From: Escherichia phage vB_EcoM_Bp10
Sequence record: MN122072
DNA: 52,288 nucleotides
Reading direction: 5' to 3' (one strand)
Both the position numbers and the translations under genes were made by a program. Below the pieces are notes generated by a model that had not been told where the DNA came from, ran no database searches, and saw only the letters and a program-made list of their open reading frames with translations. Each line of letters opens with the position of its first letter. Positions within the stretch are counted from its first letter, which is position 1. Positions 1 to 45,292 of this stretch are shown here, piece after piece.

Positions 1-336
1 ATGAAATCTAAGGAGAAGAAAGAAGCTAAAGCTCTGGTTAACCCGACTGTCTTCTTTGACATGTCCGAGCCGGACTTAGAAGTATTCAACAAACTGCCAG
101 GTGGCGAATCTCCGTATGCAATCAAGAACCGTATTACTTCCGGTGTTGATTTCTACAAGACTAAGCTGTCTGCAATGTTAGGCGGTAAACCTGCCGATGA
201 AGGCGCTGTACCGAATCAGGCTTCTGATGAAGAAGTTGATGCAGCTATGAAAGCTGAACTGGAAGCACAGGCTGCTGCAAAAGCACAGCGTGAAGCGGAA
301 GGTGGTGCTGCCGGTGGTACTGGAATGCCGTTCTGA
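1..336 (+). CDS. hypothetical protein, Ala/Glu-rich C-terminal half
   Basis: ORF begins at window position 1 with ATG; codon usage looks like highly expressed genes (ctg, ggt, cgt); followed by a strong terminator. No recognisable domain. Confidence 0.45.
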   Translation: MKSKEKKEAKALVNPTVFFDMSEPDLEVFNKLPGGESPYAIKNRITSGVDFYKTKLSAMLGGKPADEGAVPNQASDEEVDAAMKAELEAQAAAKAQREAEGGAAGGTGMPF

Positions 337-14496: not shown

Positions 14497-14506
14497 GGTG
14501 CGATAA

Positions 14507-14962: not shown

Positions 14963-14973
14963 TTGGAGTAAGT

Positions 14974-19317: not shown

Positions 19318-19323
19318 GGAGTT

Positions 19324-19349
19324 GGGGAGAAATCCCCAGCTTTCCTTTT
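19324..19349 (+). terminator. terminator-like hairpin (GGGGA-GAAA-TCCCC) with T-rich tail
   Basis: GNRA-looped 5-bp GC stem followed by AGCTTTCCTTTT, directly after the tape-measure stop. Confidence 0.45.
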
Positions 19350-19368
19350 ACATTAGTTGAATATGTAT
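19344..19368 (+). promoter_or_regulatory. copy of conserved motif ACATTAGTTG(G/A)AT(G/A)TG, candidate phage promoter
   Basis: ccttttACATTAGTTGaATaTGtat; one of seven dispersed copies, all in + orientation in intergenic DNA. Confidence 0.4.
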
Positions 19369-19390
19369 TAATTTCAATAGGTATATCGCA

Positions 19391-20500
19391 ATGCCGTGGC
19401 TACGCAGAGTTGAAGTAATAGTTTCACGTAAAGAAGACCCAAGCATTCGAACAGTATTTAAATCACATCGTATTGATTTTGAAGTCCGTTCTACTGTTGG
19501 GTGGCCCGCCGATACAGCAAACATAACTCTGTTTAACTTGTCGTTAGAAGAAGTTAAGTTCCTCCAGGACAAGTCCTACGGAGATATGTATATTGAAATT
19601 CGTGCAGGGTATGCAGAAGATGAACGTTCAGACTCTAGTGGCGGGACTTCTAGTGGCGGTGTTAAGAAGTTTGGCCAGAAGGCTGAACAGAGTGACCGCG
19701 TAACAGTGTCTACATCACTACCAACCATCTTCTCCGGAATTATTACAAACGCAGTTGGCTATAGAAAGCCTCCTGAACATGTAACACAGTTGTTTTGTAT
19801 TTCCAAGGCATATGGTGCATCCACTGATTTCAAACAGTTGACCGCAATCAAGCCTGGAACCAAACTCATTGATGCAATGCGCTCAATGTGTTCCGACTAT
19901 GGGTTCAATACCATCTCTACATTTGGTGTTGAAGATTCGGTCCTTGAAACAGTGATGCCTCGTGGGCGTGTGTTCCATGACACGTTCTTAAACGAATTTC
20001 GTAACATGCTTGGCGAATACAATTTGTTATACACTGTTACAACTGGTGAAGTGCAAATCTTCCCAGATACCTTTGGTGATAAAGATGCTGTAAACAGAAT
20101 GTCTAAAGACAGAGAGCCAGTCCAGCTAGATGAAGACTCTGTTATTGGCAACCCTGTTGCTGGAATCTGCACCTACACTTTAAATACATTCCTAAACCCA
20201 TCTTTCCAACCAGGTATGATTCTTGATGTATCTCCTTTGCTCGGTAAGAAGTTGCTTGCTAACGGTGTAACTTCTGTCAATGGTGAAGGTATTGTTCTTA
20301 ACACTGACCAGTCTGTATTCCGGTGGGCTGTTGAGGACAAATACTTTATCATGGAAGTTGTGCATAAAGGTTCGACTCACACAACCACTTATCAAACATC
20401 AATCACTGCAATCTTGGGTGGTAATACGATGATGGGTGGTAAGGAAGCTGCGTGGCAGGAAATGTATGCTAACAGTGGAATGGCAATGGAGTCATTTTAA
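19391..20500 (+). CDS. tail / baseplate protein (candidate)
   Basis: 369 aa directly after the tape measure; assigned by position only. Confidence 0.45.
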   Translation: MPWLRRVEVIVSRKEDPSIRTVFKSHRIDFEVRSTVGWPADTANITLFNLSLEEVKFLQDKSYGDMYIEIRAGYAEDERSDSSGGTSSGGVKKFGQKAEQSDRVTVSTSLPTIFSGIITNAVGYRKPPEHVTQLFCISKAYGASTDFKQLTAIKPGTKLIDAMRSMCSDYGFNTISTFGVEDSVLETVMPRGRVFHDTFLNEFRNMLGEYNLLYTVTTGEVQIFPDTFGDKDAVNRMSKDREPVQLDEDSVIGNPVAGICTYTLNTFLNPSFQPGMILDVSPLLGKKLLANGVTSVNGEGIVLNTDQSVFRWAVEDKYFIMEVVHKGSTHTTTYQTSITAILGGNTMMGGKEAAWQEMYANSGMAMESF

Positions 20501-21387
20501 TGTCTATCTTTGATACCGACCTCATTGGTGGTGTGTCCTCTGGCTTGAAGAATTTCAGTTATGGGCATCATCCATCTATTGTTATGTGGTCCAATGGACC
20601 TGCATCTCAGAAGGAAGAAGAGTCAGGACTGTTTGGTGGGTTTGCGAAATCTCTTGAGAGCTTGCCTATTGTTGGTGAATCTGCCGTAGAAAGTTTTAAC
20701 TCTTTTAAATTCGATGCTATGGTTAGTGAAGAGCACGCATCGGAAACAACTGTAACCAAGTTCCCTGTCAGTTCTGGGTTCCTGGTTAGCGACCATGTTA
20801 TTAATCAGAACAGGGTACTTAAGTTAACCGCTGTTGCTGTCAACATGCAGAACTCCTCCATGTGGACTGCATCTGTACAAGGTTTGTCCGTTGCTTCTGG
20901 TGCAATCTTCAATAGCCCGATTATCCCAATTCTTGGTGGCATTGCTGGTGGCGTTGCTTCTGCATTTGAAACAAGCAACCGAATCCAGTCTACCTACGAT
21001 TTGTTTAACAGCTTCCGTGTTACGGGGCAGAAGTTATACATCTCCACCATTCTGGGGCCTTATTTGAATTGCGTAGTAACCTCAATCAAAACCAAACATG
21101 ATAAAATGTCTTCTGCAATGTTGGCAGTTGAAATTATGTTTGAGGAATTGCAGACAGTTGATGAAGATGCTCTTGCCAGCGAAGCTCGTAAAGCAATGGA
21201 ATCAATGTCCGACTACTCTGAATTTGCAAAGGTTGCTCAAAGTTTGGGGATGGGTGTTCTTGGAGGTGTTCCGCTTCCTGGACTTGGTGCTCTTGGCACT
21301 CTTCCGACCAAACAGTTATCTAACTTGAAAGGTAAGTTAAGTAAACTGGCTTCTCCACTTTCTTCCATCAAGGGGCGTATCCTATGA
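20500..21387 (+). CDS. baseplate structural protein (candidate)
   Basis: Overlapping stop-start (TAATG) with the upstream gene; within the baseplate block. Confidence 0.4.
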   Translation: MSIFDTDLIGGVSSGLKNFSYGHHPSIVMWSNGPASQKEEESGLFGGFAKSLESLPIVGESAVESFNSFKFDAMVSEEHASETTVTKFPVSSGFLVSDHVINQNRVLKLTAVAVNMQNSSMWTASVQGLSVASGAIFNSPIIPILGGIAGGVASAFETSNRIQSTYDLFNSFRVTGQKLYISTILGPYLNCVVTSIKTKHDKMSSAMLAVEIMFEELQTVDEDALASEARKAMESMSDYSEFAKVAQSLGMGVLGGVPLPGLGALGTLPTKQLSNLKGKLSKLASPLSSIKGRIL

Positions 21388-21746
21388 TTGAGCAGGAACA
21401 TCAAGCTCTAAAGCAAATTGCCGAACTTCTGCCAACCGGATATGTGAAGAGTGTGCCTTACAGCATAAGGAAGGATGTATCGTTTGAGTTTAATGGTGTG
21501 ACGGTTAAAATGTCCGCACTGTACTTAAACGAACCTTTAAACTGTTACATGTTTGACTTGGCGTGGGGAGCTACGAATAAAATATTCGGAATCCCTATTC
21601 GATGCGGTATTGATATTCTTAAGCAATACAAGACTCCGCTCCCAAACATGTATGCAGCTAACACAGTATTCCCTGGTGAAGAAATAACAAGCTACCGACA
21701 ACTCTACCTGTTCATTATTGACGAGAGTGTACTCGAACGTGGCTAG
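21384..21746 (+). CDS. hypothetical baseplate-associated protein
   Basis: Small ORF with overlapping start in the baseplate block. Confidence 0.4.
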   Translation: MIEQEHQALKQIAELLPTGYVKSVPYSIRKDVSFEFNGVTVKMSALYLNEPLNCYMFDLAWGATNKIFGIPIRCGIDILKQYKTPLPNMYAANTVFPGEEITSYRQLYLFIIDESVLERG

Positions 21747-22533
21747 TCATAACAATAACCAAAATGCCCCTGACATTAACACAAGTTATCCAGGGCATAT
21801 TTACAACTTCGATGCAGCAACCCAAACTTGTGAGGTCCAGCTTGCAATCGAAAACCTGTTTGTGGGTTATGCCGAAGCCTACACCTTGCAGCCAAAACAA
21901 AGGTTGCAGGGTGTCCCTGTTCAGTTTATTCAGGGAGGCGGTTGGAGTTTAACTCATCCGGTTCCAGACGGAACTCCATGCTACGTCCATTTCTCCCAGC
22001 GAGGAATAGACCATTGGTTGTCGGAGAACAAGAGTAGTGCTGGCTTAGTAAACGGGCGACCTGCCCCAGAGTTCAGCCAACTGTTCTCCCATAATGCTGC
22101 CGTATGTACTATCGGGACTCAACCTTTGACCAAAGTTATTCCAGGATTTAATGGTGGAGTAACAGAACTGCGCAACGCAGACAGGAGCCAAAGACTAACA
22201 CTGCATGGTGATGGTTTAATTGAAATCATTACTGGTGCTGCGAAGATTCAAATCACAAAAGATTCGGAGATTCTGGTTGAAGTTACGTCGCAAGCTACAG
22301 TTAAAGCGCCGCAGATTACATTGGATGGCGATACGACCGTTACAAAATCTTTAACAGTGTTAGGTGGCATGGCTGTATCTGGGACCAAAGATGGCTCTAC
22401 TGCAACGTTCACTGGTGACTTCAAGATGGACGGCAACATGGTTCAAACTGGCTCCCTCACTCTTAATGGTATTAAGGTTGATGGTCATACTCACACTAAC
22501 CCAGAAGGCGGCGATGTTGGGCCGATGAAATAA
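21718..22533 (+). CDS. baseplate central spike protein (gpV-like candidate)
   Basis: C-terminus GDFKMDGNMVQTGSLTLNGIKVDGHTHTNPEGGDVGP resembles spike tips with a His-x-His metal site. Confidence 0.5.
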   Translation: MTRVYSNVASHNNNQNAPDINTSYPGHIYNFDAATQTCEVQLAIENLFVGYAEAYTLQPKQRLQGVPVQFIQGGGWSLTHPVPDGTPCYVHFSQRGIDHWLSENKSSAGLVNGRPAPEFSQLFSHNAAVCTIGTQPLTKVIPGFNGGVTELRNADRSQRLTLHGDGLIEIITGAAKIQITKDSEILVEVTSQATVKAPQITLDGDTTVTKSLTVLGGMAVSGTKDGSTATFTGDFKMDGNMVQTGSLTLNGIKVDGHTHTNPEGGDVGPMK

Positions 22534-22904
22534 TGGCTGGAAATTTAGCTCTTGATTCAAACCACGACATTATTATCGGTCGTGGAACAACTCGTATTTC
22601 AGGTGCTGCTCAAGTCGCTCAATTGGTTAAGTGCAGATTGCTGACAATCTTCGGAGAATGGAAGCTCGACAATTCGTTGGGCTTACCGTGGTTCGAGGCA
22701 ATCTTCACAAAGCAAGTGCGTCCCTCGGATATTGAGGCGGCAATAGCCAACATTATTCGTGGAACTGCTGGTGTTCAGCAACTTATATCCATAGATATTG
22801 ATGCAGACTACCGAGCAAGAAGCCTTGGAATCTCCTTTACTGCATTGTCTGATTATGGCAACATCACGGAATTCTTAACATGGCAACAATCAAATACGGC
22901 GTAA
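22533..22904 (+). CDS. baseplate wedge protein (gpW/gp25-like candidate)
   Basis: About 120 aa immediately upstream of a baseplate-J-like gene. Confidence 0.45.
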   Translation: MAGNLALDSNHDIIIGRGTTRISGAAQVAQLVKCRLLTIFGEWKLDNSLGLPWFEAIFTKQVRPSDIEAAIANIIRGTAGVQQLISIDIDADYRARSLGISFTALSDYGNITEFLTWQQSNTA

Positions 22905-24037
22905 CAGAGAACGGTTTTGTTCGCAAGCCTGTGGCCGACGTTGTATCAAATCTTAATAACAAATTCATTGCTGCATTTGGTTCCAACTTTGATATAAGTC
23001 CGGAATCTCCTGACGGGCAATATATTGGAATTATGGCCGATGAAATCGCCTCGTGCTGGGAACAGGCTGAACAAGTATTTAACGCATTCCGTCCAGGTGC
23101 TGTATCAGGAATTGGACTAGACAACGTTTGCGAACTAACAAATACTGTTCGATATGTTGACAAGCCTTCTCAAGCAACTGTCTTGTGCGATGGTGATATG
23201 GGAACTACTGTTCCTGCTGGTTCTATCGTAACGGATGGCACCATGCGCTTTATTCTCGACACAGATGTAACACTTCCAGGTGACGTAACTGTTATTGCAG
23301 AAGAGCCTGGTGAGTATTATGTTGCACCGAGAACAATCAACCAAATCGTAACTCCTGTTGCCGGATGGAATTCCGTAATTAACGAAACAGTTGGCGAGAC
23401 TGGCATTAACTATGAATCAGACCCACAACTCCGAGCACGTCGAGAAAAGACTACGGCAGTCAGCAGCACAGCCACAGTCGAAGCCATCTATGCTTCACTC
23501 GCTGACCTCGATATTGATTACATTCGTGTTCGTGATAATGATACCGGCTCTCCTATTGGCAATCAGCCTTCGGGCACTATATTTGTTGTAGTTGATGGCG
23601 GTACGAGCAATGATATTGCACGTCGAATCTACAATGCCAAAACTGGCGGAGTTCCGACATATGGCGATATCACAATTACTGTAGCAGACTCGAAAGGCTA
23701 CCCACACGATATTCATTTCAGCCGACCAACTTACACTGACATTTATGTCAAAGGTACGTTCCGTCGTCGTGCAAATGCCAACATAAGTTCGAACGATGCT
23801 ATTCGTCAGCTTACAGATGCAACCATTGAATATCTCAACTCCCTGCAACCAGGGCAGAGTGTGGTATGGTCCAACATGTTCGCTCCCATTATGGCTGCAA
23901 CACAGTATCTTGAAATTGATTCGCTGTTTATTGGTATTGCACCAAACCCAACTGGCATAGCAACGATAGAGTTGGATATCGACAAACGTGCTCGCGGGGT
24001 TGCTGCTAACATAACTTACACTGATGTGACGGTATAA
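22880..24037 (+). CDS. baseplate J-like protein
   Basis: 385 aa between the small wedge protein and tail-fibre genes; assigned by size and position. Confidence 0.5.
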   Translation: MATIKYGVTENGFVRKPVADVVSNLNNKFIAAFGSNFDISPESPDGQYIGIMADEIASCWEQAEQVFNAFRPGAVSGIGLDNVCELTNTVRYVDKPSQATVLCDGDMGTTVPAGSIVTDGTMRFILDTDVTLPGDVTVIAEEPGEYYVAPRTINQIVTPVAGWNSVINETVGETGINYESDPQLRARREKTTAVSSTATVEAIYASLADLDIDYIRVRDNDTGSPIGNQPSGTIFVVVDGGTSNDIARRIYNAKTGGVPTYGDITITVADSKGYPHDIHFSRPTYTDIYVKGTFRRRANANISSNDAIRQLTDATIEYLNSLQPGQSVVWSNMFAPIMAATQYLEIDSLFIGIAPNPTGIATIELDIDKRARGVAANITYTDVTV

Positions 24038-24038
24038 T

Positions 24039-24680
24039 ATGGCTGGTAAACATGGCTTAGATATGCTGCTTTCACAGTATGCACTATCGCCAAACCTTCG
24101 TAAGTATATTTCAATCTTCTTAGAAGAGTTTGCAGAAGTTAAACAGGCCATGACTGACTCAGTTAAGTACAGATACTTAGCAGATTCGTTCGGAGTCATG
24201 GTTGACGACCTTGCGTATATTGTGGGAGCTTCTCGTGTAATACAAGGTGCTGCGGCACTTGGGTACTTTGGCTTCTACGCCAACCCAGGTGCATTTCCTG
24301 CTGGTGATGACAACGACCCAGGTATTGGTGGTATTCTGAAATCAGATTACGACAAAGACTCTGGGGACTTTGTTCGAACAGACGGGCAGTTAAAGGATGC
24401 AATACGTGCCCGAATCATCAAGATAACTGGCAACTGCACCATTGAACAGCTTATCATGTATATTGAATTGGTCGTAGGAAGGAAGCTGAAACTCCAAATC
24501 GTAGAAGGGTTTCAGACAATGGACTACATTATTCATGAGGAGTTGTCTGTGGCCGAGAGAGTTCTCATGGCCTATATGCTCCCGAACTTTAAGCCTGTTG
24601 GAGTTAAGATTACCCTAAGAGATGCTAAAGGTAACATTGCTCTGGTTTATGGTTCCAAAGATTATCCTCCGGAGAAATAA
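24039..24680 (+). CDS. baseplate / tail protein I-like (candidate)
   Basis: 213 aa between baseplate-J-like and the first tail fibre gene. Confidence 0.4.
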   Translation: MAGKHGLDMLLSQYALSPNLRKYISIFLEEFAEVKQAMTDSVKYRYLADSFGVMVDDLAYIVGASRVIQGAAALGYFGFYANPGAFPAGDDNDPGIGGILKSDYDKDSGDFVRTDGQLKDAIRARIIKITGNCTIEQLIMYIELVVGRKLKLQIVEGFQTMDYIIHEELSVAERVLMAYMLPNFKPVGVKITLRDAKGNIALVYGSKDYPPEK

Positions 24681-25828
24681 TGACTCAACGTCTTAAGTTT
24701 AATTTTCCCTGGGCGCAAGATGGTGAAGTTAAAGACCCGGACTTGGATACCACTGCGCCAAGTTTTATCGAAAACAGGTACGCCAATCTGGGCTGGGAAG
24801 CTGAAAAGCCTCCCAATGAGTGGCAGAACTTCTTATCTCAAATTAGCGATTTGAAGATTATATCCCTGCTGTTCAGTGGCATTGCTGAGTTTGATTCAAG
24901 TGTGACTTATCAAGTTGGTGCAGTATCTTCCCTCAATGGTGTTGTTCGTGTATATACACCAACAGGTTGGGAAGAGGTGATGGACCTCAAGAGGGTTGAC
25001 TATCTTAATGACGTCAGTAACTTGAAGTCCCTCTACGATAGTCACTTGGCTGCAACCAATCCACATAAAGAAACTGTGGACACCATCACAGACAAAACTT
25101 ATAGCAAAACTGATATAGATGATGCCTTTGGAAGCGCCACAGACCCAAGGACCATAGTGTATCATAAGCTACAAACTGGCCGTGTACACCAAGAAACTCC
25201 ACAACAACTTGGAACACTTCCAACATCTGGTGGTAAGTTTTCCGGTCCTGTGTCGCTGTTGGCTGGGATGAAGTTTGGGACAAACGTCACAATTCGAATG
25301 AACCCAGGAAATGGGAGAATTGAGATGCGTGCAGGTAACAGGGTTCTATCCATTGATGCACTTGGCAATGTTCTGTGGAGCATAGTTGGTGGCGAAGAGT
25401 ATCCGGTGATGACGGAACTGAATTATTCAGAATTCCAGATTCGCTGGGGAAACAGGTTCGCACTTCCTGTGCCATACCTTGACATGAACATCACCAAAAC
25501 CTTAAACGACGCATCCTCCGTAAATGGCTGGACTATTACAACATCTGCCCCTCCTGTTTTCCAATCTGTAGATGGTGGACTTAGGGTAGATAACAACACA
25601 GTAACTTTCGAAGGCTTTCAGGTTGCAGCACCAGGAACTTTTGTGGTTTATGCTATGGATGGTAAAGGCAAGAAGTTGCGAGCTGTGGTAGATGCTCCTA
25701 GTGGAAACTACACATCAATGAGCACACTTCTAACAAACCTAGGCCTTGCAAATGCAACGTATGTATCAAGGATTACATACTACCCAAGACTGACAGCCTA
25801 CAATAAATCAATGTTAGCGAGCGTATAA
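24680..25828 (+). CDS. tail fibre protein
   Basis: Contains ATNPHKETVDTI, a tail-fibre-repeat-like NPH(K)xT motif. Confidence 0.55.
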   Translation: MTQRLKFNFPWAQDGEVKDPDLDTTAPSFIENRYANLGWEAEKPPNEWQNFLSQISDLKIISLLFSGIAEFDSSVTYQVGAVSSLNGVVRVYTPTGWEEVMDLKRVDYLNDVSNLKSLYDSHLAATNPHKETVDTITDKTYSKTDIDDAFGSATDPRTIVYHKLQTGRVHQETPQQLGTLPTSGGKFSGPVSLLAGMKFGTNVTIRMNPGNGRIEMRAGNRVLSIDALGNVLWSIVGGEEYPVMTELNYSEFQIRWGNRFALPVPYLDMNITKTLNDASSVNGWTITTSAPPVFQSVDGGLRVDNNTVTFEGFQVAAPGTFVVYAMDGKGKKLRAVVDAPSGNYTSMSTLLTNLGLANATYVSRITYYPRLTAYNKSMLASV

Positions 25829-27202
25829 ATGGCGATTCGTCCTAAACTGAACCGAGTCTGGACTTCAAACAACTCTGTCGCAAGACGTGACCCAGGGGAT
25901 GAAAAATATCTCAAGGGTTGGGTTGCGGAGATTCCGACCTATCAGGTTCTTAACTACCTGCAATACAAGATTGACACCACAATGCTTGCACAAGCAGAAC
26001 GTGGAATCTTTGAGTGGGGCAGTGATGTAAGTTATGGCGTTGGTAGTTTGGCTTGGGACGAAACAAACAAAACGATTTATGTTTGTACTGTCGCCAACCC
26101 CAACAAAACCTTACGCCCAAGTGCAAACTCTGCACAGTGGAGTCCAAGCTCCATTCAAGTTTCTCGTGCGAATTACGACTCAATTGTTGCAGCAATCAAT
26201 GCACACATTGCAGACGTAACCACAAACCCGCACAAGGTAACTGCTGCACAAATTGGTGCATACAACAAGTCTGAACTTGACGCGATTGTGGCCAACTATC
26301 GTGCAATGGTTCAAGCGCACGTAACGGATTACAACAATCCACACAAACTTACTGCGGTCCAAGTTGGTGCTGTCCCTGCGGCTGGTGGTGCATACACTGG
26401 TGAAGTTACCTTCACAACCGTGTTTCTGAATGATTCCAAGACTGCCCAGATTGTTAACGACGGTGGATTGTATCTTCGCAATGGAAGCTACTATCTTGGA
26501 ATCAACGGGGCCACAGGAAATGCAGAAGTCGGAACAGCTTCAAGCAAGTCCCCTGTCGTAACTGACTTAACATTCCCGACACTCAAAGTTGCAACTGAAC
26601 CTGAGTATGCAGTGCCGGAACCAATTGTTAACATGCCCCTTATTGGCAGCATCAACCTGCGAGCCGGGATTGGTAAAGTCAACAGCAGTGCCAACGAGCC
26701 AGTATATGCACCGCAGTTTGGTAATGCACTATTAGTAAGACATGGTGCTGCTTTTGGGATACGCGGCACTGAAGAGGTACTGGCAGGTGGTAGACAAGCG
26801 ACACTTGCCATTGACACCATATTCTCCGGTACTCCGATTGGAGGTAATTGGTTGTGGGACTTTGGTCTTGGTTGGTTTACAATTCTTGTAACACCCAACA
26901 GGGATGTCCGGTGTGAGATTAAAGGGACAGGAACTGTTGCAGTATCTAATGGTGTAACCTTGCCGATGAACGAGTGGGTTCGCATTGTTGCTACATACAA
27001 TGCGGCAACAGGGAGGGTTTGTCTGTACATCAATGGCGTAAAAGCATTCGACCTTACCCCAAGTAACCTCCCAACAACAGGATTTAGGGAGGGGACTATC
27101 TATAATTCGGTATCAGCATCATATCCTAACATCTCCACATACTTGCGAAACTTCCGAATATGGTCTGACGAGTTAACAGACAAACAAGTTTCAACCTTAT
27201 AG
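25829..27202 (+). CDS. tail fibre protein with NPHK-VT-AxQ(I/V)GA repeats
   Basis: Two clear repeats TTNPHKVTAAQIGAYNKSELD and YNNPHKLTAVQVGAVPAAGG. Confidence 0.6.
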   Translation: MAIRPKLNRVWTSNNSVARRDPGDEKYLKGWVAEIPTYQVLNYLQYKIDTTMLAQAERGIFEWGSDVSYGVGSLAWDETNKTIYVCTVANPNKTLRPSANSAQWSPSSIQVSRANYDSIVAAINAHIADVTTNPHKVTAAQIGAYNKSELDAIVANYRAMVQAHVTDYNNPHKLTAVQVGAVPAAGGAYTGEVTFTTVFLNDSKTAQIVNDGGLYLRNGSYYLGINGATGNAEVGTASSKSPVVTDLTFPTLKVATEPEYAVPEPIVNMPLIGSINLRAGIGKVNSSANEPVYAPQFGNALLVRHGAAFGIRGTEEVLAGGRQATLAIDTIFSGTPIGGNWLWDFGLGWFTILVTPNRDVRCEIKGTGTVAVSNGVTLPMNEWVRIVATYNAATGRVCLYINGVKAFDLTPSNLPTTGFREGTIYNSVSASYPNISTYLRNFRIWSDELTDKQVSTL

Positions 27203-27211
27203 GAATTAAAA

Positions 27212-28249
27212 ATGGCTAAAGGTTATTCTTTAGATGCGTTGGTTAGTGAGCACTACATGAAGTCTCGAGTTGCACTAGGGACAACAAACTTAGACACATA
27301 TACCGGTATGGACAATATCGGTGTGTTCTACCAATACTCAAATGCCAACGCAACAAGTGAAAATGGGTATCCGGCAGGTGCACAAGCAGGTTCCCTAGAA
27401 GTTCTTCCCCACAACGCCAACAAAGATGGTCATGTGCTGCAAAGGTACACAAACTATGCAGATAAACGTATGTGGGTAAGAAGCCAGTCTGGTAACCAAA
27501 GTTATGATGGCTTCTACGAGTGGACTGAGTTCGTTAACATGAACAACATCTACAATGCCATCTACCCAATCGGCATTGTATTGCAGTTTGATAATGCCAC
27601 CAACCCGAACAACGTGTTCACCGGTACTGTGTGGGAACAAATCACCGATGGTCGAGCCGCCCGTGCTGCGACTGGTCCGGAGGCTGGCACGGCTGACGGT
27701 AAGATTGGTTCTGTAGCTGGGTCTGATACCGCCGCCATTGCTGTGGCTAACCTACCAGGCCACACACACGGAATGCAAAACCACACTCACGGTATTGCAG
27801 CCCACTCCCACACGATGTCCCACACCCACACCATCAACCACGACCACGGTGCAGTTGCATCAAGTTCATCTGGTGGACACCATCATAGCGTAAGCGGAAG
27901 TACATCATCTGCTGGGGACCACACGCACTCAATAGGTGGTGGTGTATCTGTTTCTGCTGGTAGTGGTAAAACCATTAACCAGGACCACAGTGGTGTAAAC
28001 ACCCGTTCTGCTGGTGCTCACACACACTCAATAAGTGGGTCCACTAACTGGACTGGCGACCATACACACACTGTGGACCTCCCAAACTTCACAGGTACAA
28101 GTGGTGGCTCTAGCGCAGGTAGCACTGGTGGCACTGCACTGACCACTGGGGGTCCTAGCAATAACGAAACAACCTCCACTGGTGGCGGAACTGCACTCAA
28201 TGTGCGTAACTCTTCACACTATTATGCCTTCTGGAAACGGACGGCTTAA
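27212..28249 (+). CDS. tail fibre distal protein with His-x-His repeats and Gly/Ser/Thr-rich tip
   Basis: Run of HTHG, HTHG, HSHT, HTHT, HDHG, HHHS, HTHS, HTHS, HTHT motifs, then a Gly/Ser/Thr-rich C-terminus. Confidence 0.6.
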   Translation: MAKGYSLDALVSEHYMKSRVALGTTNLDTYTGMDNIGVFYQYSNANATSENGYPAGAQAGSLEVLPHNANKDGHVLQRYTNYADKRMWVRSQSGNQSYDGFYEWTEFVNMNNIYNAIYPIGIVLQFDNATNPNNVFTGTVWEQITDGRAARAATGPEAGTADGKIGSVAGSDTAAIAVANLPGHTHGMQNHTHGIAAHSHTMSHTHTINHDHGAVASSSSGGHHHSVSGSTSSAGDHTHSIGGGVSVSAGSGKTINQDHSGVNTRSAGAHTHSISGSTNWTGDHTHTVDLPNFTGTSGGSSAGSTGGTALTTGGPSNNETTSTGGGTALNVRNSSHYYAFWKRTA

Positions 28250-28256
28250 GGAAACA

Positions 28257-28598
28257 ATGGAACGATTATCCATTCAGATGTTTGTGGACCTGATGCACCA
28301 ATACGGCGTATGGCACGGGCTATTGGCTGGTCTGACGGCCTTAATCCGTGGGGCATATGAAAGTGAAGGCTTAAGCAAGGCGCTGCTAGATGCGGCGCTG
28401 TGCAGCTTAATCGGCTTGTTTGCCTTTCATGTTGCTGGCACATTTGAAACCTTCACGACTAACGTCACTATGCAGTTAGTATTGGCTATCGTGATTGGTG
28501 TCATCGGTGCAAACCTCATTATCACAACTGTCAGGGAAAGTTTCTCTGGCGCAATCAAACAACTTAACCCTTTAACGTGGTTCAAGAAGGCACGATGA
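28257..28598 (+). CDS. holin (lambda S-like, three TM segments)
   Basis: Three hydrophobic segments and a charged C-terminus; LIRGAYESEGLSKALLDAALCSLIGLFAF resembles lambda S; directly upstream of a lysin. Start at ATG 28257; ORF track starts at 28182. Confidence 0.65.
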   Translation: MERLSIQMFVDLMHQYGVWHGLLAGLTALIRGAYESEGLSKALLDAALCSLIGLFAFHVAGTFETFTTNVTMQLVLAIVIGVIGANLIITTVRESFSGAIKQLNPLTWFKKAR

Positions 28599-28615
28599 AA
28601 TGATAAGGAACTCGA

Positions 28616-29170
28616 ATGCTATCATTCAAAGTTCTTGCACTTCTGACAGCTCTAGTTCACATCAACGCCCCAGCTTCGGTTGGGGCAGTGAATTCTGCTA
28701 TTACAGATTTTGCAAGTCATTCTTATTTAAATGGAAGTCTGAAACTATCTTCTTCACAACGCAAAGAGCTAGAATGCTACACTAAAGTTATCTGGTATGA
28801 AGCTCGCGGAGAAGACAAACATGGAAAGATTCTGGTAGCTAATGTCGTCCGTAATAGAACCAAGTTCGGGAAGCCATTCGCTAACACCGTTTGTGATGTT
28901 GTCTATCAACGCAATCAATTTGCATGGACAAGAGAAGCAAAGAAGAAGAATGCTCAATGGAAGCATGTAGCAAAGATTAATTATGCCACAGAACAACAAC
29001 AAGTTCTGGACACCATTAATGTTGCAATCTCTTTTGTATTATTTAATCAACCCTCTGTCACCAAAGCAACCCACTTTTGTACAGCATCGGAGAAGTGCAA
29101 CTTCAAGAATGTCAAAGGTTTGGGACGTTACGGTGGCCACAAATTCTATGAGTATCTAGGAAATCTGTAA
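28616..29170 (+). CDS. secreted cell-wall hydrolase, SleB/CwlJ family (endolysin candidate)
   Basis: N-terminal signal-like [24 protein letters not shown]; core VIWYEARGE...VVRNR...QFAW matches the Hydrolase_2 signature. Confidence 0.7.
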
Positions 29171-38131: not shown

Positions 38132-39037
38132 ATGGACAATAAGATTATCGAAATACCTGCAAATTTGGTCAAAACTGGCGACATTGTATTTCATGATGGC
38201 AGAGGGTATCCGATTGTACACATCAACAGACTTAGTGATGTAGTTCAGCTACAACACTCTGGCGGATTCTTTAATTTTGAGTTGGGCCGTATAGTCAGAG
38301 TATTGGAAAAACGTCCCACTACAGAATCTTTTACAAAGCCTACCACAACCCGTGCAGTATTGGCGCATGAAGTACGACCTGGAAACATCTTATCTTACGG
38401 AATCAGATTCTTTGAGATAAAGGAAGTTAAAGACCTTGGGGAAATACCTGAAAATGTGGTTCGATTAACCCATGTAACAGGATACTTTGACTTTTCACCC
38501 AACCGCATAGTCCACATTGTTAATACGCCACCAGCACAGGAAACTCCTACGGTGAAGTTCGATACTCAAATAAAGCCAGTGTTCCTTCCATATGAGGAAG
38601 CGGTGAAACCATTCTCAGATGAAGAGGATGTTCTTGGAAAAGATTTGGAAGTTGGTGATATTATTTGGGTCAATAATACTTGGGCCACTATAACAAATAT
38701 GTATAAACATCCAAATTCACCATTTAATAAAGTGAATGTGGACTATGATGGCGTTAAAGGTTTACAAGTGCGCCTCACATTAACTGGAACATTTTCAAGA
38801 AAGGTAAGGGCAGTTATGGAAACATTATATATTCAAAATGCAATCGAAGCACAACGTATTCTTCTACAAAAGCTTGAGCAAATGCTGGAATTAGCGCAGC
38901 TCCTACCAACAAAAGATGGCAAGATTGCAATCAGCAACTGCAACATTCGCGTGGACAAGGCATCAATCACTAAAGCCGCACGCGATGAAATGAAAGTTGC
39001 TGCAAGCAAATCCGCAGAACTTATCAAGAAGCTGTAA
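38132..39037 (+). CDS. hypothetical protein with three internal repeats of about 60 aa
   Basis: Repeats align on GDI(V/I)...Y(P/G)I..I...V.L.H..G.F.F...RIV. Start at ATG 38132; ORF track starts at 38108. Confidence 0.45.
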   Translation: MDNKIIEIPANLVKTGDIVFHDGRGYPIVHINRLSDVVQLQHSGGFFNFELGRIVRVLEKRPTTESFTKPTTTRAVLAHEVRPGNILSYGIRFFEIKEVKDLGEIPENVVRLTHVTGYFDFSPNRIVHIVNTPPAQETPTVKFDTQIKPVFLPYEEAVKPFSDEEDVLGKDLEVGDIIWVNNTWATITNMYKHPNSPFNKVNVDYDGVKGLQVRLTLTGTFSRKVRAVMETLYIQNAIEAQRILLQKLEQMLELAQLLPTKDGKIAISNCNIRVDKASITKAARDEMKVAASKSAELIKKL

Positions 39038-39044
39038 TTAACAG

Positions 39045-39069
39045 AGGTCATTCCACTTCGAGTGGCCTC
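39045..39069 (+). terminator. terminator-like hairpin (GAGG..CCACT-TCG-AGTGG..CCTC)
   Basis: Nested inverted repeat right after the stop, AT-rich downstream. Confidence 0.35.
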
Positions 39070-39092
39070 GATTAATTATTACTGGAGTATTT

Positions 39093-39443
39093 ATGAAAAC
39101 TTTATATATTGCACTGACAATACTGTTCGGAGTATTCGCATTTAAATCGGAAGCGTCTGTTCGCAACTTCCAGTGCGGCGGATACAAAATGTCCGTTGAA
39201 ACAATTACAATGAGCCAGCCACTCATTGCAACAATTTCTTTGCACGAAGGTACTTGGATTGAGATTCCAGACAATGGGAATCCTAACCCAATGTCCACAG
39301 TGTTTTATAACACACAGAGCAGCAAGCTGGCTTTAGTTGGTGTTGACGCTGAGGAACGTTTAGTGCTACAGATTTATCGTGACATTGACTTCTTTCATGC
39401 CAAATTTCCACTTTTATCAACATATTGTAAGGAAGTTAAATGA
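39093..39443 (+). CDS. secreted / periplasmic protein with signal peptide
   Basis: MKTLYIALTILFGVFAFKSEA is a typical Sec signal with an AxA-like cleavage site. Confidence 0.5.
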   Translation: MKTLYIALTILFGVFAFKSEASVRNFQCGGYKMSVETITMSQPLIATISLHEGTWIEIPDNGNPNPMSTVFYNTQSSKLALVGVDAEERLVLQIYRDIDFFHAKFPLLSTYCKEVK

Positions 39444-39673
39444 CGTCATCCGAATTTACCATTGATGGAGTACCGTACTTACTTGAATCCAGTTGCGAAT
39501 ATCGTCACTGGTCAGTAATTCGTGACCGAGTAGTTAAATTCTTGGAACGAGTAGGGAAAGATGCAGCTATTCTGACTACAGCCACAGTAGAAGGAACAAC
39601 CGAAATCAATCGAGAGCTTGTATCTTTTAAATTAACCATCAACCCAACAGGAAATCCATTCCGTGAAAGTTGA
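39440..39673 (+). CDS. hypothetical protein
   Basis: Overlapping start with the upstream ORF. Confidence 0.4.
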   Translation: MTSSEFTIDGVPYLLESSCEYRHWSVIRDRVVKFLERVGKDAAILTTATVEGTTEINRELVSFKLTINPTGNPFRES

Positions 39674-39932
39674 AGAACTGGCTGACCATCTTGAGGCAGC
39701 AAAACAAGAGCTTGCAACTCACTCAGAACGTGTAAAAACACTGAAAGAGCAAGGCTCAACGTCCGAAGAAATCCAGCTGTTCACAGACAATATCTGGTTT
39801 TCAATGAATCGTGCACAGTTTATCCAGATTCAGGAAGACCGCCTTGCTGAACTGGAAAAGCGTGTTGAAACACTCGAGAATTTACTTGCAACACTGCAAG
39901 AAACTTTGGACCAGGAGTTGAAAAATGTCTAA
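39663..39932 (+). CDS. hypothetical coiled-coil protein
   Basis: Heptad-like charged sequence throughout. Confidence 0.4.
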   Translation: MKVEELADHLEAAKQELATHSERVKTLKEQGSTSEEIQLFTDNIWFSMNRAQFIQIQEDRLAELEKRVETLENLLATLQETLDQELKNV

Positions 39933-40323
39933 CGTCAAACTGGGCCAACGTTCACTTGACCGACTCAAAGGTGTAAATCCTTCATTAGTAGCAGTTTTCA
40001 AGCGTGCATGTGAAACAATGCCGTTTGATATAACTGTTCTTGAAGGATTGCGCACTTATGAGCGTCAACAAGAGCTTTTAAAGCAAGGTGCAACCAAAGT
40101 TTCAGTTAGCCGACACATGTCAGGCAACGCTTTGGACATTGCGCCGTATCCAATTGACTGGAATGACCTCGAACGATTCCAAACTGTAGCTGAGCACATG
40201 TTCAAAGCCGCAGAAGAGATTGGAATTACTATTCGTTGGGGCGGGACATGGGAACGAACCTTCACTAAGCCAGTGAAATGGGCTAAGTTCCTTGATGCAC
40301 CACACTTCGAACTTCCGGCATAA
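39925..40323 (+). CDS. peptidase M15 family (L-alanyl-D-glutamate peptidase-like) lysin
   Basis: SRHMSGNALDI (His-x6-Asp) and DAPHFEL (second His) fit the zinc-binding motifs of the M15/VanY family. Confidence 0.7.
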   Translation: MSNVKLGQRSLDRLKGVNPSLVAVFKRACETMPFDITVLEGLRTYERQQELLKQGATKVSVSRHMSGNALDIAPYPIDWNDLERFQTVAEHMFKAAEEIGITIRWGGTWERTFTKPVKWAKFLDAPHFELPA

Positions 40324-40331
40324 CTTCATCA

Positions 40332-40622
40332 ATGGAGAATCCGATGAATTACGAAGATATTCCAAGAGAGTTAAATGCACTGGAGTCAAGAACCATCCGT
40401 GCAGAGAATATTCTCCACCAGCACCTATCAATTAACGTGGGTGATGAAAAGAAGATGCAGTACACTATGGAACTTGACGATGTAGTCTACACTGTCAGTT
40501 ACAACGAGAAGGCTGCTATCCTCAGTGCACTTATTAAAGGTGGGAATGAGCGAATCAATCAACTTAAGATTCTGGACACAGAATTGAGAGGTACTTGGGA
40601 GAAACTAAATGCAAAACACTAA
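40332..40622 (+). CDS. hypothetical protein
   Basis: ORF with AGGAGA-like RBS context (ATGGAGAATCCGATG). Confidence 0.4.
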   Translation: MENPMNYEDIPRELNALESRTIRAENILHQHLSINVGDEKKMQYTMELDDVVYTVSYNEKAAILSALIKGGNERINQLKILDTELRGTWEKLNAKH

Positions 40623-41157
40623 CATTATTCAAGCAGTAGAACAGCTTAAGTCCTGGCGTAGAGATGAAAATTTATTGGTTCGTTTCTACACAGGCGAAAC
40701 TAATTCTGAATTTGTAGATGCGTGGATTGATGGCCTGTCTTGGCGTCATTATGATTTCAACATGCGGGATTATTTGCATGAAGAATACGGCATTGAATAT
40801 CCAGAAGACGGTACATACGACATTCTGGAATCAAGCGAAGAAGACGTTACCGAAGTTTGCTTTGCCAATGGACTATTCAGCATTCGTAAATATGATAAGT
40901 TCAATGAGCTGCTCGTTGACACCGATTTGGATGTAATTCTTGCAGCATTCCGCAGTGGTGAGATTGATATTTTCACTGTAGACGATTTGAATGACAAGGT
41001 TATTGCTCTGTGTGATTCAATTGTGGATTACTTCAAAAACTACGAAGGAATAGAAGTTCCAGACCACCTTCGTCCATATATTGATTGGGATGCAATCGCC
41101 AGAGATTATGGAAGTGACTACATTTTCTCTGAGGGAATACTGTTCTTAAATGCGTGA
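40609..41157 (+). CDS. strongly acidic protein (about 40 Asp/Glu in 182 aa), DNA-mimic-like
   Basis: Hand count gives about 40 D/E against about 13 K/R; stretches like EEYGIEYPEDGTYDILESSEEDVTEV. Confidence 0.45.
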   Translation: MQNTNIIQAVEQLKSWRRDENLLVRFYTGETNSEFVDAWIDGLSWRHYDFNMRDYLHEEYGIEYPEDGTYDILESSEEDVTEVCFANGLFSIRKYDKFNELLVDTDLDVILAAFRSGEIDIFTVDDLNDKVIALCDSIVDYFKNYEGIEVPDHLRPYIDWDAIARDYGSDYIFSEGILFLNA

Positions 41158-41392
41158 TTTAAATATTGCTGAACTTGAGGCTGGATTGATTGTTCACCAC
41201 CAGCCTCGAAACACTTTCTATCGTATTCTTGGGCCTACAAAGATTAAAACTCACTGCGGAAGTTGGGTGGATGGGTTTGCTTACCAAGAAGTGAAGAAGT
41301 ACGGGGACCATACTTTCTTGAGTATTGATTCTTCTACTATCTACACACGACCGAAAGAGCTGTTTGATTCAGACTGGAAGGTTCTGGGATAG
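41150..41392 (+). CDS. hypothetical protein
   Basis: 80-aa ORF, last gene before the 0.86-kb ORF-free region. Confidence 0.4.
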   Translation: MRDLNIAELEAGLIVHHQPRNTFYRILGPTKIKTHCGSWVDGFAYQEVKKYGDHTFLSIDSSTIYTRPKELFDSDWKVLG

Positions 41393-41455
41393 TTCCAAGC
41401 TGTTCCGTCGAAGTGCCAAGCGGGTTTTGTGCTCGCATTGGCCTTCGGCTTTAGT

Positions 41456-41480
41456 CTGAAACATTAGTGGGATTTGATTC
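41456..41480 (+). promoter_or_regulatory. copy of conserved motif, candidate phage promoter
   Basis: tctgaaACATTAGTgGGATtTGatt. Confidence 0.4.
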
Positions 41481-41595
41481 GGACCACTTAGGGAAGAAAG
41501 GCATTATACACTTATCGCCAAATGGGTGTCAAGCACTTTCTTCATTTATTTTAATTTATTCTTATTATTCTTTTTGTTTGGAATATTGGAATAAT

Positions 41596-41620
41596 TCTGA
41601 AACATTAGTTGGAATTGAAG
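41596..41620 (+). promoter_or_regulatory. copy of conserved motif, candidate phage promoter
   Basis: tctgaaACATTAGTTGGAaTTGaag; 20 bp upstream of a tRNA-like minihelix. Confidence 0.4.
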
Positions 41621-41639
41621 AGACAACATCAGATAAGAG

Positions 41640-41704
41640 CTTTGTAACTAGGTAGTCCGTCTGGTACCAGGGCGTGTGAGAACGTTCGATTCGTTCTACA
41701 AAGT
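41640..41704 (+). ncRNA. tRNA-like element (perfect 7-bp acceptor stem plus T-arm, shortened body)
   Basis: CTTTGTA (41640-46) pairs with TACAAAG (41697-703); adjacent T-arm GAACG-TTCGATT-CGTTC (41680-96); body about 8 nt too short for canonical D and anticodon arms. Confidence 0.3.
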
Positions 41705-42256
41705 TCTTTTCGATGGAATGTTTCCATCAAATACATTTATCTTTTAACATAGGCCAAAGGGCCGGAATACTTCTTCGCAGAAAGCTGTTCACTTGTTATA
41801 GCGATGTATTGGGATGAATTGGTACTAAATAAGCAAGCTGTTAGGGCTGAATAATTAGAGGGTAGTGCCTCATGCTTATGTTAGTCATTCGAAAATAGGT
41901 TTGTGCCACAAGCTGCTGGTGCTCCGAGGAAGTCGGACAAACAGGGCTTAGAGTGGCATAATCCGCACAAAACCGCGCCACCAGCTATGCCAAAGCAGGT
42001 AGGTTGGGTGAATGTATTGGGAAGGGTTGCAAAGCCTCTGTGACACGCCTGAGCCGCAAGGCGACAACACTCATGTGATTAGCGTATCGCACCCTAACGG
42101 GAGTAACTCTTCACCAATGCAGTTATCCAGAATTGACACAAACGGTAGGCAGTGGCCCGATTTTCGGCCTTCCTGCGCTACTCTGTGGCCTGTTTTACCA
42201 GGCTAAAAGATGAGAAGAGAAGTCACAAACACTGAATCGAAAATTGGAGAGTTCCT

Positions 42257-42577
42257 ATGATTCGCAAGCATTCTGCTAAAGTTTTGACGTTAAGAAATGT
42301 ACTAATGTTTCTGTCGAGTGAGGAAGGAGAGGAAGAAACAATCCACTTCGTTCTCGTTGGCGGGCGTTGGTACTATAACGGCACTAATTCTTTCCACGTA
42401 AGTCTGTCGGAGAAAGATGGATTCTGGAAGCACACCTTTAAGGAGTTGCTTGAGAGCAGTGCCAGTTATACACTTGCCGAAGTTAAGAAGTATTTCTACT
42501 GCGGCCCAAACAAGTCCATGCAAATCGCAACTCGCAACTGGACAACAAACCAACCGATTTACGGAGTTCCATTTTGA
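42257..42577 (+). CDS. hypothetical protein
   Basis: 106-aa ORF with GGAGA RBS, first gene after the ORF-free region. Confidence 0.45.
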   Translation: MIRKHSAKVLTLRNVLMFLSSEEGEEETIHFVLVGGRWYYNGTNSFHVSLSEKDGFWKHTFKELLESSASYTLAEVKKYFYCGPNKSMQIATRNWTTNQPIYGVPF

Positions 42578-42864
42578 ACTTACAAGACAAATCTAAAGAA
42601 GAGTTGATTGAGATTATCCAGAAAGAGCACGAACTCGCTGGTATCACAATTAACTTTGAACTCCAGGCAATGCAAGCTGTTGCTTTGGGCCATGGTCTAA
42701 TGGCTACACTCATTCATGCCAAGAATGTGTTAGGCGTTGACAACGAAAAATACCAAATTCTGGAGAAAGCTGCGCAAGAGCGGATTTCGCAGTGCTTGGT
42801 GACATTAGTTGATTTGGGAATCGACGCAGAAACTGCGAACAAACGTATCCTACAAGGCCACTAA
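42574..42864 (+). CDS. hypothetical protein
   Basis: Overlapping stop-start with the upstream ORF. Confidence 0.4.
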   Translation: MNLQDKSKEELIEIIQKEHELAGITINFELQAMQAVALGHGLMATLIHAKNVLGVDNEKYQILEKAAQERISQCLVTLVDLGIDAETANKRILQGH

Positions 42865-42865
42865 A

Positions 42866-43540
42866 ATGTCTTATCATGATGATGACAAAGAGATTGCACT
42901 ATCAACGTGTAAGCAATGGCTCAATGATAATGATGCCGTCTATCTTGCCAAGGAAGATGTTATCATTATGTGGGTCCATTTTAATCCAGAATCGAAGCGC
43001 GGTGAGTGGCAACGCTACAAGATGAAAGAGGCTTGTCGCATAATTAAAGCCACACGCGCTGGCTTCTCTGCTATGAAGTATATTAAGCCAGAGATGCTGA
43101 TGCTTGCTGCACAGGAAGAAGAACGTGCATATAAGCAAGCTGTTAAATCTCGTTCAACTGTTCCTCCAGAGTTCTTTAATTTGGAGCGCGCTGGACACTT
43201 CAACAATTTAGAAATGTTGACACTATGCCTGTTGCAAGAATTAGTTGGAAGAGGACAAAACATTGAAGCTGTTTGTCTTGGAGAACTCATGAAAGAGTTG
43301 TTCTCGGCAAAGGGCTTTGCTGTGCCAAATCGAACTTTACGCTGGAAATTGTTGCGAGCAGTCGCGCAAGAAGCTGGTGTAGTTGTTCGTGACAGAACAA
43401 ACCGACTCACTGTAACTGGAGTTGGGCGTTTTGTAGCAATCCAGATTGAGGGTTATGACGAATCAATCATCACTGAACTCACTGTCGCTGAGACAAAGGA
43501 TTTAGTAAATAAAACACTGGAACGATTCAATAGATATTGA
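42866..43540 (+). CDS. hypothetical protein
   Basis: Start at ATG 42866 immediately after the upstream stop; ORF track starts at 42809. Confidence 0.45.
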   Translation: MSYHDDDKEIALSTCKQWLNDNDAVYLAKEDVIIMWVHFNPESKRGEWQRYKMKEACRIIKATRAGFSAMKYIKPEMLMLAAQEEERAYKQAVKSRSTVPPEFFNLERAGHFNNLEMLTLCLLQELVGRGQNIEAVCLGELMKELFSAKGFAVPNRTLRWKLLRAVAQEAGVVVRDRTNRLTVTGVGRFVAIQIEGYDESIITELTVAETKDLVNKTLERFNRY

Positions 43541-43563
43541 GTCGTTTGACGAATCAGAGCAGT

Positions 43564-43588
43564 TCTGAAACATTAGTTGGATGTGGAA
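43564..43588 (+). promoter_or_regulatory. copy of conserved motif (perfect core), candidate phage promoter
   Basis: tctgaaACATTAGTTGGATGTGgaa, 75 bp upstream of a codon-optimised gene. Confidence 0.45.
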
Positions 43589-43663
43589 AGAGAAAGGCTC
43601 TTTAATTTTATCTAAGTCACGTCACCGTGGCGTGCAAAACTATTCAATATAAGGTATATACAA

Positions 43664-44002: not shown

Positions 44003-44383
44003 GTTGCCGATGGCAAACTTGAGAGACTAAGCTAAATCGATCTGGCATGCACTGGAAGTTTTCCGGTGCTGCCTTGAACCCATTCCAGAGTGAGTGGGCT
44101 TCAATTTGTACATAATCCAAACACCATTGCATGAGCCTTCGACGGGAGGCAATGTTGGGAAATTTGTTGTGTACAAATTGAAGTAGTTTTCTGAGTCTTA
44201 CGACGGGCCTAAACTGCCTGGAGTTATTGCGACTGTTTTATTCATTTAAAATAAATGCAAATGATTCTGAAATGCGAGTTGCGGCTTAATTAAATTTAAG
44301 TCCTCTCCGTGGTCTTCCAATCCCACGTAACCAAATTTGGCGCATTGTGGCTTCGAGATGTGATTAATAAATCGGAGCAATAA

Positions 44384-45113: not shown

Positions 45114-45143
45114 CACTTTAATAATAGCAATACTGGAGTCCTT

Positions 45144-45284: not shown

Positions 45285-45292
45285 GGTGATTT

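Follow-up and report, generated by a model that had tools for sequence, protein, structure and literature searches.

A nine-copy, co-oriented element in Escherichia phage vB_EcoM_Bp10 belongs to the phiEcoM-GJ1 family of predicted phage RNA polymerase promoters

The promoters of T7-group phages are contiguous elements of about 23 bp. A T7-like single-subunit RNA polymerase (RNAP) is also characteristic of the chaseviruses, which are myoviruses (profile issued by the ICTV, the international virus taxonomy committee; PMC12842549). No other well-sampled group of myoviruses is known to have a polymerase of this type. For the phage phiEcoM-GJ1 (GJ1), the abstract of Jamalludeen et al. 2008 (Appl Environ Microbiol 74:516) reportedly mentions "nine putative phage promoters". 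The GenBank record of GJ1 (EF460875 / NC_010106) annotates them as "putative phage promoter 1-9" with the consensus AACATTAGTTGGATGTGAA, and the record of SA91KD (OL960574) takes this annotation over with the wording "similar to promoter of phiEcoM-GJ1 (Jamalludeen 2008)". Here, we analyzed Escherichia phage vB_EcoM_Bp10 (Bp10; MN122072). The window, i.e., the whole stretch of 52,288 nt, is a complete, circularly closed Carltongylesvirus (Chaseviridae) genome, as the gene starting at 51758 crosses the end into positions 1-336 to give an intact open reading frame (ORF) of 867 nt. The genome carries nine plus-strand copies of one 23-nt element that, on sequence grounds, probably constitute promoters read by the phage's own single-subunit T7-type RNAP, encoded at 30988-33102. 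A first-pass annotation of the sequence had proposed such a role for a motif that matched none known to it. The proposed role is supported by strand, position, size, synteny, lineage restriction and the lack of host-promoter features; the supposed novelty is not, since the same motif had already been annotated in GJ1 and SA91KD. Thus, the promoter prediction is already known from this close relative since 2008, and the element is not of a new kind. Modestly new are a conserved copy upstream of the RNAP gene, which is unannotated in GJ1 and SA91KD and lies inside the predicted terminal repeat, and the fact that two copies point into non-coding DNA.

When both strands of the whole genome were searched with a 16-nt core, ACATTAGTTGGATGTG, allowing up to three mismatches, nine matches were obtained, all on the plus strand, against 0.53 expected, and none of 100 shuffles reached this number. 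The exact core is present at two sites only, 33426 and 43570. To prevent circularity, a 23-nt position weight matrix (PWM) was built exclusively from 38 sites of other phages, and its threshold was set at 17.4 bits, the 95th percentile of the maxima of shuffled genomes. Nine Bp10 sites score above this threshold, again all on the plus strand (19345, 30904, 33421, 37539, 41456, 41597, 43233, 43565 and 51675), and the best minus-strand score is 15.7 bits. The motif also stands out in blind k-mer counts: CATTAGTTGGA is the top strand-specific 11-mer, with five occurrences on the plus strand and none on the minus strand, the top strand-specific 10-mer is likewise part of the motif, and TTAGTTGGAT is the top intergenic word when one-mismatch neighbourhoods are counted. 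The first-pass annotation had listed seven plus-strand copies. All seven are present and intergenic according to the gene map, and their positions, 5-6 nt upstream of the 16-nt core, correspond to the start of the 23-nt element (19345, 30904, 33421, 37539, 41456, 41597 and 43565). The copies at 51675 and 43233 had been overlooked, so that the true count is nine, and the strand bias, for which a whole-genome search had been proposed, is nine to zero with about 0.5 expected.

The distribution of the copies is shared with related phages. Eight of the nine GJ1 sites have an above-threshold homolog in Bp10, with strand and syntenic position unchanged; the homolog of the ninth, GJ1 "promoter 2", is a degraded copy (TCTTTCGATTAGTTGCATGTGAA, 34280-34302, plus strand, three mismatches to the core) that scores 15.2 bits and is thereby below the threshold, compared with 25.5 bits in GJ1. 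The map positions common to Bp10, GJ1 and SA91KD are those after the RNAP gene, before the SSB gene, the tandem pair after the antirestriction gene, and those before the acidic-protein gene, in the small gene after the DNA polymerase gene and before the baseplate hub gene. In sequence, strand and synteny the Bp10 motif thus matches that of GJ1, and Bp10 encodes a GJ1-type RNAP. At up to three mismatches, four further genera, whose RNAPs are 68-76% identical to that of Bp10, likewise have the motif far more often than expected by chance and nearly always on the plus strand; they are represented by 4HA13 (10 matches), Y2 (8), PA_03 (11) and PM1 (7). Synteny therefore extends to five other genera (GJ1, 4HA13, Y2, PA_03 and PM1; RNAPs 68-92% identical to that of Bp10). 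In the four further genera, copies again follow the RNAP gene and precede the SSB and acidic-protein genes, and 4HA13 and PA_03 also have one in front of the baseplate hub gene. Orthologous sites of different genera share 74% identity within the element, versus 36-40% in the adjacent 25-28 nt. A BLAST search with a 33-nt copy against 50,697 phage records matched 59 records. Chaseviruses account for 51 of these and usually carry 2-5 copies per record; the remaining records have single matches with E >= 1 inside genes of Vibrio and Bacillus phages, so that multiple copies were found only in chaseviruses.

Two records carrying the motif (PP952070.1 and PP763568.1) have host labels that look doubtful. 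"Staphylococcus phage Pel53", for which S. hyicus is given as the host, is about 87% identical in DNA sequence to these E. coli chaseviruses, and "Aeromonas phage phiA050" has an RNAP gene of the Cleopatravirinae type (76% DNA identity).

The RNAP gene (30988-33102, plus strand) encodes a protein of 704 amino acids that matches the Pfam family RNA_pol with E=1.3e-19, and its start codon is the same as that in the annotation of phage Mangalitsa. The protein is divergent: phmmer found no match for it in the PDB, and a profile built from seven chasevirus RNAPs matches T7 RNAP in the PDB with E=3e-9. In the profile alignment, motif A reads DAKCSGTQY (DGSCSGIQH in T7) and motif C reads IHDCFR (IHDSFG in T7), and both catalytic motifs are invariant across the seven chasevirus RNAPs. 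The Bp10 enzyme is 92% identical to that of GJ1 and, at 704 versus 883 amino acids, about 180 residues shorter than T7 RNAP.

The motif is restricted to one lineage of this enzyme. Vibrio phage VPs20 (Nefertitivirinae), whose RNAP is 34% identical, has no motif matches at up to three mismatches, and its PWM maximum is 10.5 bits. It has instead a plus-strand-only intergenic element, GGGCTCG-N4-6-TCGCCCACTAG, with eight copies on the plus strand and none on the minus strand, spread over 2319-20998 from directly after the RNAP gene. Genera with the motif are 80-90% identical to one another in the RNAP segment between motifs B and C, where the T7 specificity loop lies; in the comparison with VPs20, this segment shows 32% identity, with indels. 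The distribution of the motif thus tracks the RNAP lineage, as would be expected of promoters specific for this polymerase, and the 2008 prediction holds as a conserved element of about 23 bp in at least six genera, restricted to that RNAP lineage.

The anatomy of the element was derived from a stack of 52 sites from six genomes, for which the information was computed per column. Conservation is contiguous over about 23 nt, from position -4 to position +18 as counted from the core start, and reads c-T-g-A-A-ACATTAGTTGGATGTG-A-A. Core positions T5, A6 and G10 are invariant, the upstream block ATTAGTTG is at least 90% conserved, and the GATGT block of the core is more variable. G16 is present in 51 of the 52 sites, and the next two positions are purines in 45 and 38 of them, respectively. 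Upstream of the element there is only a weak AATATTG, present in a subset of the sites and, in several genera, placed some 18 nt before the promoter core; downstream, none of the positions from +19 to +46 reaches 0.3 bit of information. The element itself is linear and unstructured, and its invariant positions are base-specific.

Activator-dependent promoters, such as those of the T4 MotA/AsiA system, likewise show a short motif that is confined to one strand and lies between genes, in front of middle or late genes, and behind the RNAP gene there are many small early genes without known function. The element might, accordingly, be a binding site resembling the MotA box, at which a phage or host transcription activator redirects the host RNA polymerase. 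We consider this quite unlikely. The low information between +19 and +46 leaves no conserved -10-like element at a fixed distance, no copy coincides with any of the plus-strand sigma-70-like matches found in 30000-46000, the contiguous block of 23 nt is far longer than a MotA box, and the motif follows the lineage of the RNAP. As for particular host-type promoters, a sigma-70 promoter was rejected, as in 30000-46000 no plus-strand pair of -35 and -10 hexamers 16-18 nt apart coincides with a copy, such matches are not enriched there (30 versus 35 in shuffles), and no hexamer is conserved downstream. A T4 middle promoter, in which a MotA box of about 9 bp lies about 12 nt upstream of the -10, was rejected for lack of a conserved downstream -10. 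The Bp10 element resembles the MotA middle promoters in being a short conserved motif before middle genes of a myovirus; it differs from them in its longer block and the missing fixed-distance -10, and in that Bp10 encodes its own RNAP.

At copies with a gene behind them, 26-79 nt separate G16 from the start codon; the genes concerned are those for the baseplate hub, the RNAP, SSB and the acidic protein of 112 amino acids, and the gene after the DNA polymerase gene. The first four of these had been named correctly in the first-pass annotation, which had also placed a tRNA-like element behind one of the copies. No tRNA was found there: downstream of the copy at 41597, ARAGORN reported none, and Rfam gave no tRNA match with E<=1 in 41380-42100. 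The hairpins that had been noted before two of the copies exist as well, and are more widespread than stated, as a stable hairpin is present upstream of six of the nine sites (z -2.5 to -4.5; the upstream 60 nt were folded, or 76 nt for the copy at 33421). In SA91KD, terminators are annotated at several of the homologous positions. That all copies are on the coding strand and at operon boundaries, usually right after a terminator-like hairpin, argues for promoters, as does the same call made, independently of the present analysis, by the annotators of GJ1 and SA91KD.

Strand-specific, intergenic sequences beside hairpins also occur as the RNase processing sites of T7 mRNA, and the element could thus act at the RNA level, as a signal for processing, stability or protein binding within polycistronic transcripts. 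At 19345, however, the element directly follows a terminator consisting of a hairpin and a U-run, and would often not be reached by transcription from upstream. The copy at 30904 lies about 125 nt from the predicted, homology-mapped left end of the genome, and no promoter was detected upstream of it. Together with the unstructured, linear nature of the element, its base-specific invariants and a distance to the next start codon that varies from 26 to 395 nt across the copies, this makes a function in RNA very improbable.

The left end just mentioned derives from relatives. PhageTerm predicts chasevirus terminal repeats at 1-3234 in Mangalitsa and 1-3120 in 4HA13, and transferring these predictions by homology places the Bp10 terminal repeat at about 30778-34011, giving a repeat of about 3.2 kb that includes the RNAP gene. 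An iteron-rich non-coding region of about 850 bp after the RNAP gene spans the repeat boundary. Two copies of the element flank this region in or next to the terminal repeat, and chaseviruses carry several HNH homing endonucleases; one may therefore ask whether the element is a DNA signal unrelated to transcription, with a part in replication, in recombination or in packaging, or a trace left behind by a small mobile or homing element. Nine dispersed, co-oriented copies at operon boundaries over 52 kb, syntenic in six genera, are not what one would expect of an origin or a pac site, nor of mobile insertions of recent date, and neither flanking repeats nor associated ORFs accompany the motif, and hence we regard this explanation as hardly credible.

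A promoter for the phage RNAP invites comparison with the T7 group (Autographiviridae: T7, T3, SP6 and K11). Like the promoters of that group, the Bp10 element is a contiguous duplex element of about 23 bp on the coding strand, present in multiple copies at operon starts and often after terminators, and has a conserved G, followed by purines, at the likely start; the single-subunit RNAP has the same catalytic motifs, and its recognition of the element is what we infer. The features of the functional class are thus present, namely, a co-oriented, multi-copy element of about 20-23 bp and a cognate RNAP with motifs A and C. Bp10 differs in being a myovirus with a terminal repeat of about 3.2 kb that contains the RNAP gene. 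The sequences do not match: against the T7, T3, SP6 and K11 consensus sequences, ungapped comparison gave at best 9-10 matching positions of 19-22 (P 0.34-0.84), which is at chance level, and no 23-mer resembling any of these consensus sequences with up to 6 mismatches is present in the genome, the nearest having 7-8. By its sequence, the element belongs to the GJ1-type family of predicted promoters and not to the T7, T3, SP6 or K11 families. If the promoter prediction is true, a pair of RNAP and promoter without similarity to these four could serve as an orthogonal expression system.

Following this interpretation, the RNAP would be made early and bind the duplex element of about 23 bp, with ATTAGTTG as the predicted binding and specificity region and the variable GATGT as the region that would melt. 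RNA would start at or within a few bases of G16, the putative +1 of the copies at 19345, 30904, 33421, 37539, 41456, 41597, 43565 and 51675 being the G at 19365, 30924, 33441, 37559, 41476, 41617, 43585 and 51695, respectively. At each copy, transcription would set in anew for a block of rightward genes, in most cases just past a hairpin or terminator; the blocks in question are the early and DNA-metabolism genes, the SSB gene, the acidic-protein gene, the block from replication to structural genes, and the baseplate and tail-fibre block. Through the copy in front of the RNAP gene, the enzyme would be able to stimulate its own production.

It should be noted that several points weigh against the identification of the copies as phage RNAP promoters. 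Our literature searches revealed no published experimental evidence of initiation at such sites in any chasevirus: the papers on ST32, PYps, 4HA13, Tiny and the APEC phage hold no promoter or transcription start site data, a full-text search for the motif string returned unrelated primers only, and the ICTV profile of 2022 states that chasevirus promoters "have not yet been identified" (PMC12842549). The position of +1 is a guess. There is no similarity to the T7, T3, SP6 or K11 consensus, so that the T7 analogy is one of architecture. The information and footprint values within the core are inflated, as the sites had been found by core matching, which leaves the values for the flanks unaffected. 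Two strong copies, at 33421 and 41597, have no obvious gene downstream, and the copy at 43233 codes for a peptide, (E/T)LVGRG, that is itself conserved and may account for the conservation of the DNA, which makes promoter function at this site doubtful. Finally, Aeromonas phage ZPAH14 (Shantouvirus) has neither the Bp10 nor the VPs20 motif in its first 14 kb, and the covariation of motif and RNAP is therefore only partly shown outside the Cleopatravirinae.

ZPAH14 has repeated elements of its own, namely, a short hairpin, GGCTCTnnGAGCC, followed by AAAAG, which occurs three times (2797, 4722 and 9193), and clustered GTATGAGAC iterons right after the RNAP gene (3132-3444). Judged by their sequence context, the plus-strand intergenic elements of VPs20 and ZPAH14 are candidate lineage-specific promoters.

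The individual copies, which like the hairpins and terminators beside them are on the plus strand, differ in predicted strength and surroundings. The copy before the RNAP gene (30904-30926, TCTCACCATTAGTTGGTTGTGAT) has a PWM score of 20.8 bits and a predicted leader of 64 nt, and no stable hairpin was found in the folded stretch upstream of it. Its orthologs are at 566 in GJ1 (26.3 bits), 567 in SA91KD, 122 in 4HA13, 172 in PA_03 and 184 in PM1; those of GJ1 and SA91KD score 24-26 bits and carry no annotation in either record, and the copy was found to lack annotation in every public record checked. An intrinsic terminator (GGGAGCTTCGGCTCCC plus TTTCTTGTTT) lies at 33358-33383, after the RNAP gene region, and has an annotated homolog in SA91KD. 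It is followed by the strongest predicted copy (33421-33443, CTGTAACATTAGTTGGATGTGAA, 33.1 bits), the homolog of GJ1 "promoter 1", which points into the non-coding iteron-rich DNA and whose downstream leader, GAAGTAACAGAATACGGAGAAGTATTCCGCA, is kept in four genera.

The two copies at 30904 and 33421 may have a function other than gene expression. In T7, the promoters phiOL, phiOR and phi1.1A/B, the last of which belongs to the primary origin, serve replication or genome-end functions. The Bp10 copies resemble these by position only: the 30904 copy is near the predicted left end and upstream of the RNAP gene, as is phiOL; the 33421 copy lies just after the RNAP gene and faces repeat-rich non-coding DNA, as do phi1.1A/B, and in the right-hand terminal repeat it would be about 590 nt from the genome end, reminiscent of phiOR. 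As both lie inside the homology-mapped terminal repeat, both would be present twice in virion DNA. It is a tentative possibility, and on balance a doubtful one, that the pair forms a positive-feedback loop for the RNAP together with a transcription-primed replication origin or a genome-end processing signal and, separately, that the copy at 41597 drives a structured non-coding RNA.

Further along the genome, a hairpin at 37504-37540 (z = -3.71), with an SA91KD terminator at the homologous place, directly precedes the copy before the SSB gene (37539-37561, 20.8 bits, homolog of GJ1 "promoter 3"). The SSB gene (37633-38010, phrog_7364) encodes the acidic tail DFDDDIPF, and orthologs of this copy precede the SSB gene in 4HA13, Y2, PA_03 and PM1. 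A strong hairpin of -27.8 kcal/mol (41407-41449, z = -4.51), which also coincides with a terminator in SA91KD, is followed by the copies at 41456-41478 (25.8 bits) and 41597-41619 (29.6 bits), the homologs of GJ1 "promoter 4" and "promoter 5". The weak copy at 43233-43255 (18.1 bits, homolog of GJ1 "promoter 6") is barely above the threshold and lies inside the conserved gene 42809-43540. Behind a hairpin at 43518-43548 (z = -3.93; SA91KD terminator at the homologous place) follows the copy at 43565-43587 (31.9 bits, homolog of GJ1 "promoter 7"), which has orthologs in four other genera and precedes the acidic-protein gene (43664-44002, phrog_17419), whose product of 112 amino acids has an isoelectric point of 4.49. 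The copy at 51675-51697 (24.7 bits, homolog of GJ1 "promoter 8") lies within the final 50 nt, at the 3' end, of a small conserved gene (51455-51727); the gene that comes next (51758..52288+1..336) is 63 nt away. Lastly, the copy at 19345-19367 (23.5 bits, homolog of GJ1 "promoter 9") adjoins the U-run of an intrinsic terminator (19309-19349, hairpin plus GCTTTCCTTTT, z = -3.08) and would give a leader of 26 nt before the baseplate hub gene (19391-20500, phrog_196); its orthologs are at 42330 in 4HA13 and 41275 in PA_03.

A further match at 4836-4858 (CTCAGCCATTAGTGGATTGTGAT, 16.7 bits) is below the threshold and was rejected as a probable coding coincidence; it lies at the end of a small conserved ORF, overlaps the terminase start codon and is kept in GJ1 (26978) and SA91KD (27973). 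It is the sole candidate start signal near the head-gene block. Small ORFs that start inside the motif are probably gene-calling artefacts; they include Mangalitsa gp03 (2661-2825), which would start at the ATG of GGATGTG according to coordinate mapping, and a Bp10 ORF (41467-41655) with its GTG in the 41456 copy.

The sequence that follows the copy at 41597 is non-coding and structured over about 395 nt, with no ORF of at least 50 amino acids starting before 42012. Within it, 41617-41780 is predicted to adopt a stable multi-branch fold (-45.1 kcal/mol, z -2.9), in which a T-arm-like hairpin, GAACGUUCGAUUCGUUC, is followed by two further hairpins, outlining a structured RNA candidate of about 90 nt. 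According to this folding model, the stretch may be transcribed into a phage non-coding RNA from a predicted promoter of its own. The single tRNA found in the genome is a tRNA-Leu(cag) of 97 nt at 45019-45115 (ARAGORN; 45020-45111 in Rfam), on which the sources disagree: the GJ1 record has the homolog as tRNA-Arg, with a length of 95 bp, and adds that it "may contain an intron", and the ST32 paper gives a tRNA-Arg without an intron.

The RNAP gene is also surrounded by other repeats. An AT-rich stretch upstream of it contains three tandem units of about 26 bp, GAGACTnnAATTGT, at 30583, 30609 and 30635 (30583-30660; 0.37 expected), the third of which is the homolog of the "putative host sigma70 promoter" annotated in GJ1. 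By sequence, the units look like tandem early host promoters. As they lie outside the left end of the homology-mapped terminal repeat, only the RNAP gene copy on the right would have them upstream. Between the copies at 33421 and 34280, an iteron-like array (33630-34290, with further positions at 30359, 30562 and 33406) consists of four GCATGT-N5-6-TTGTGACAATATTG units and a palindrome, AATATTGTGACAATATT; it may serve as an origin or as an operator array, or mark the terminal-repeat boundary. The genome has six CAATATTG octamers (1.5 expected), and all of them cluster around the RNAP gene.

The tail protein of 1241 amino acids encoded at 15592-19317, a tape-measure protein or, in relatives, "tail fiber", contains a YqaJ-like viral recombinase (exonuclease) domain at residues 468-604, which is unusual for a tail protein, as well as a C-terminal SLT lytic transglycosylase domain.

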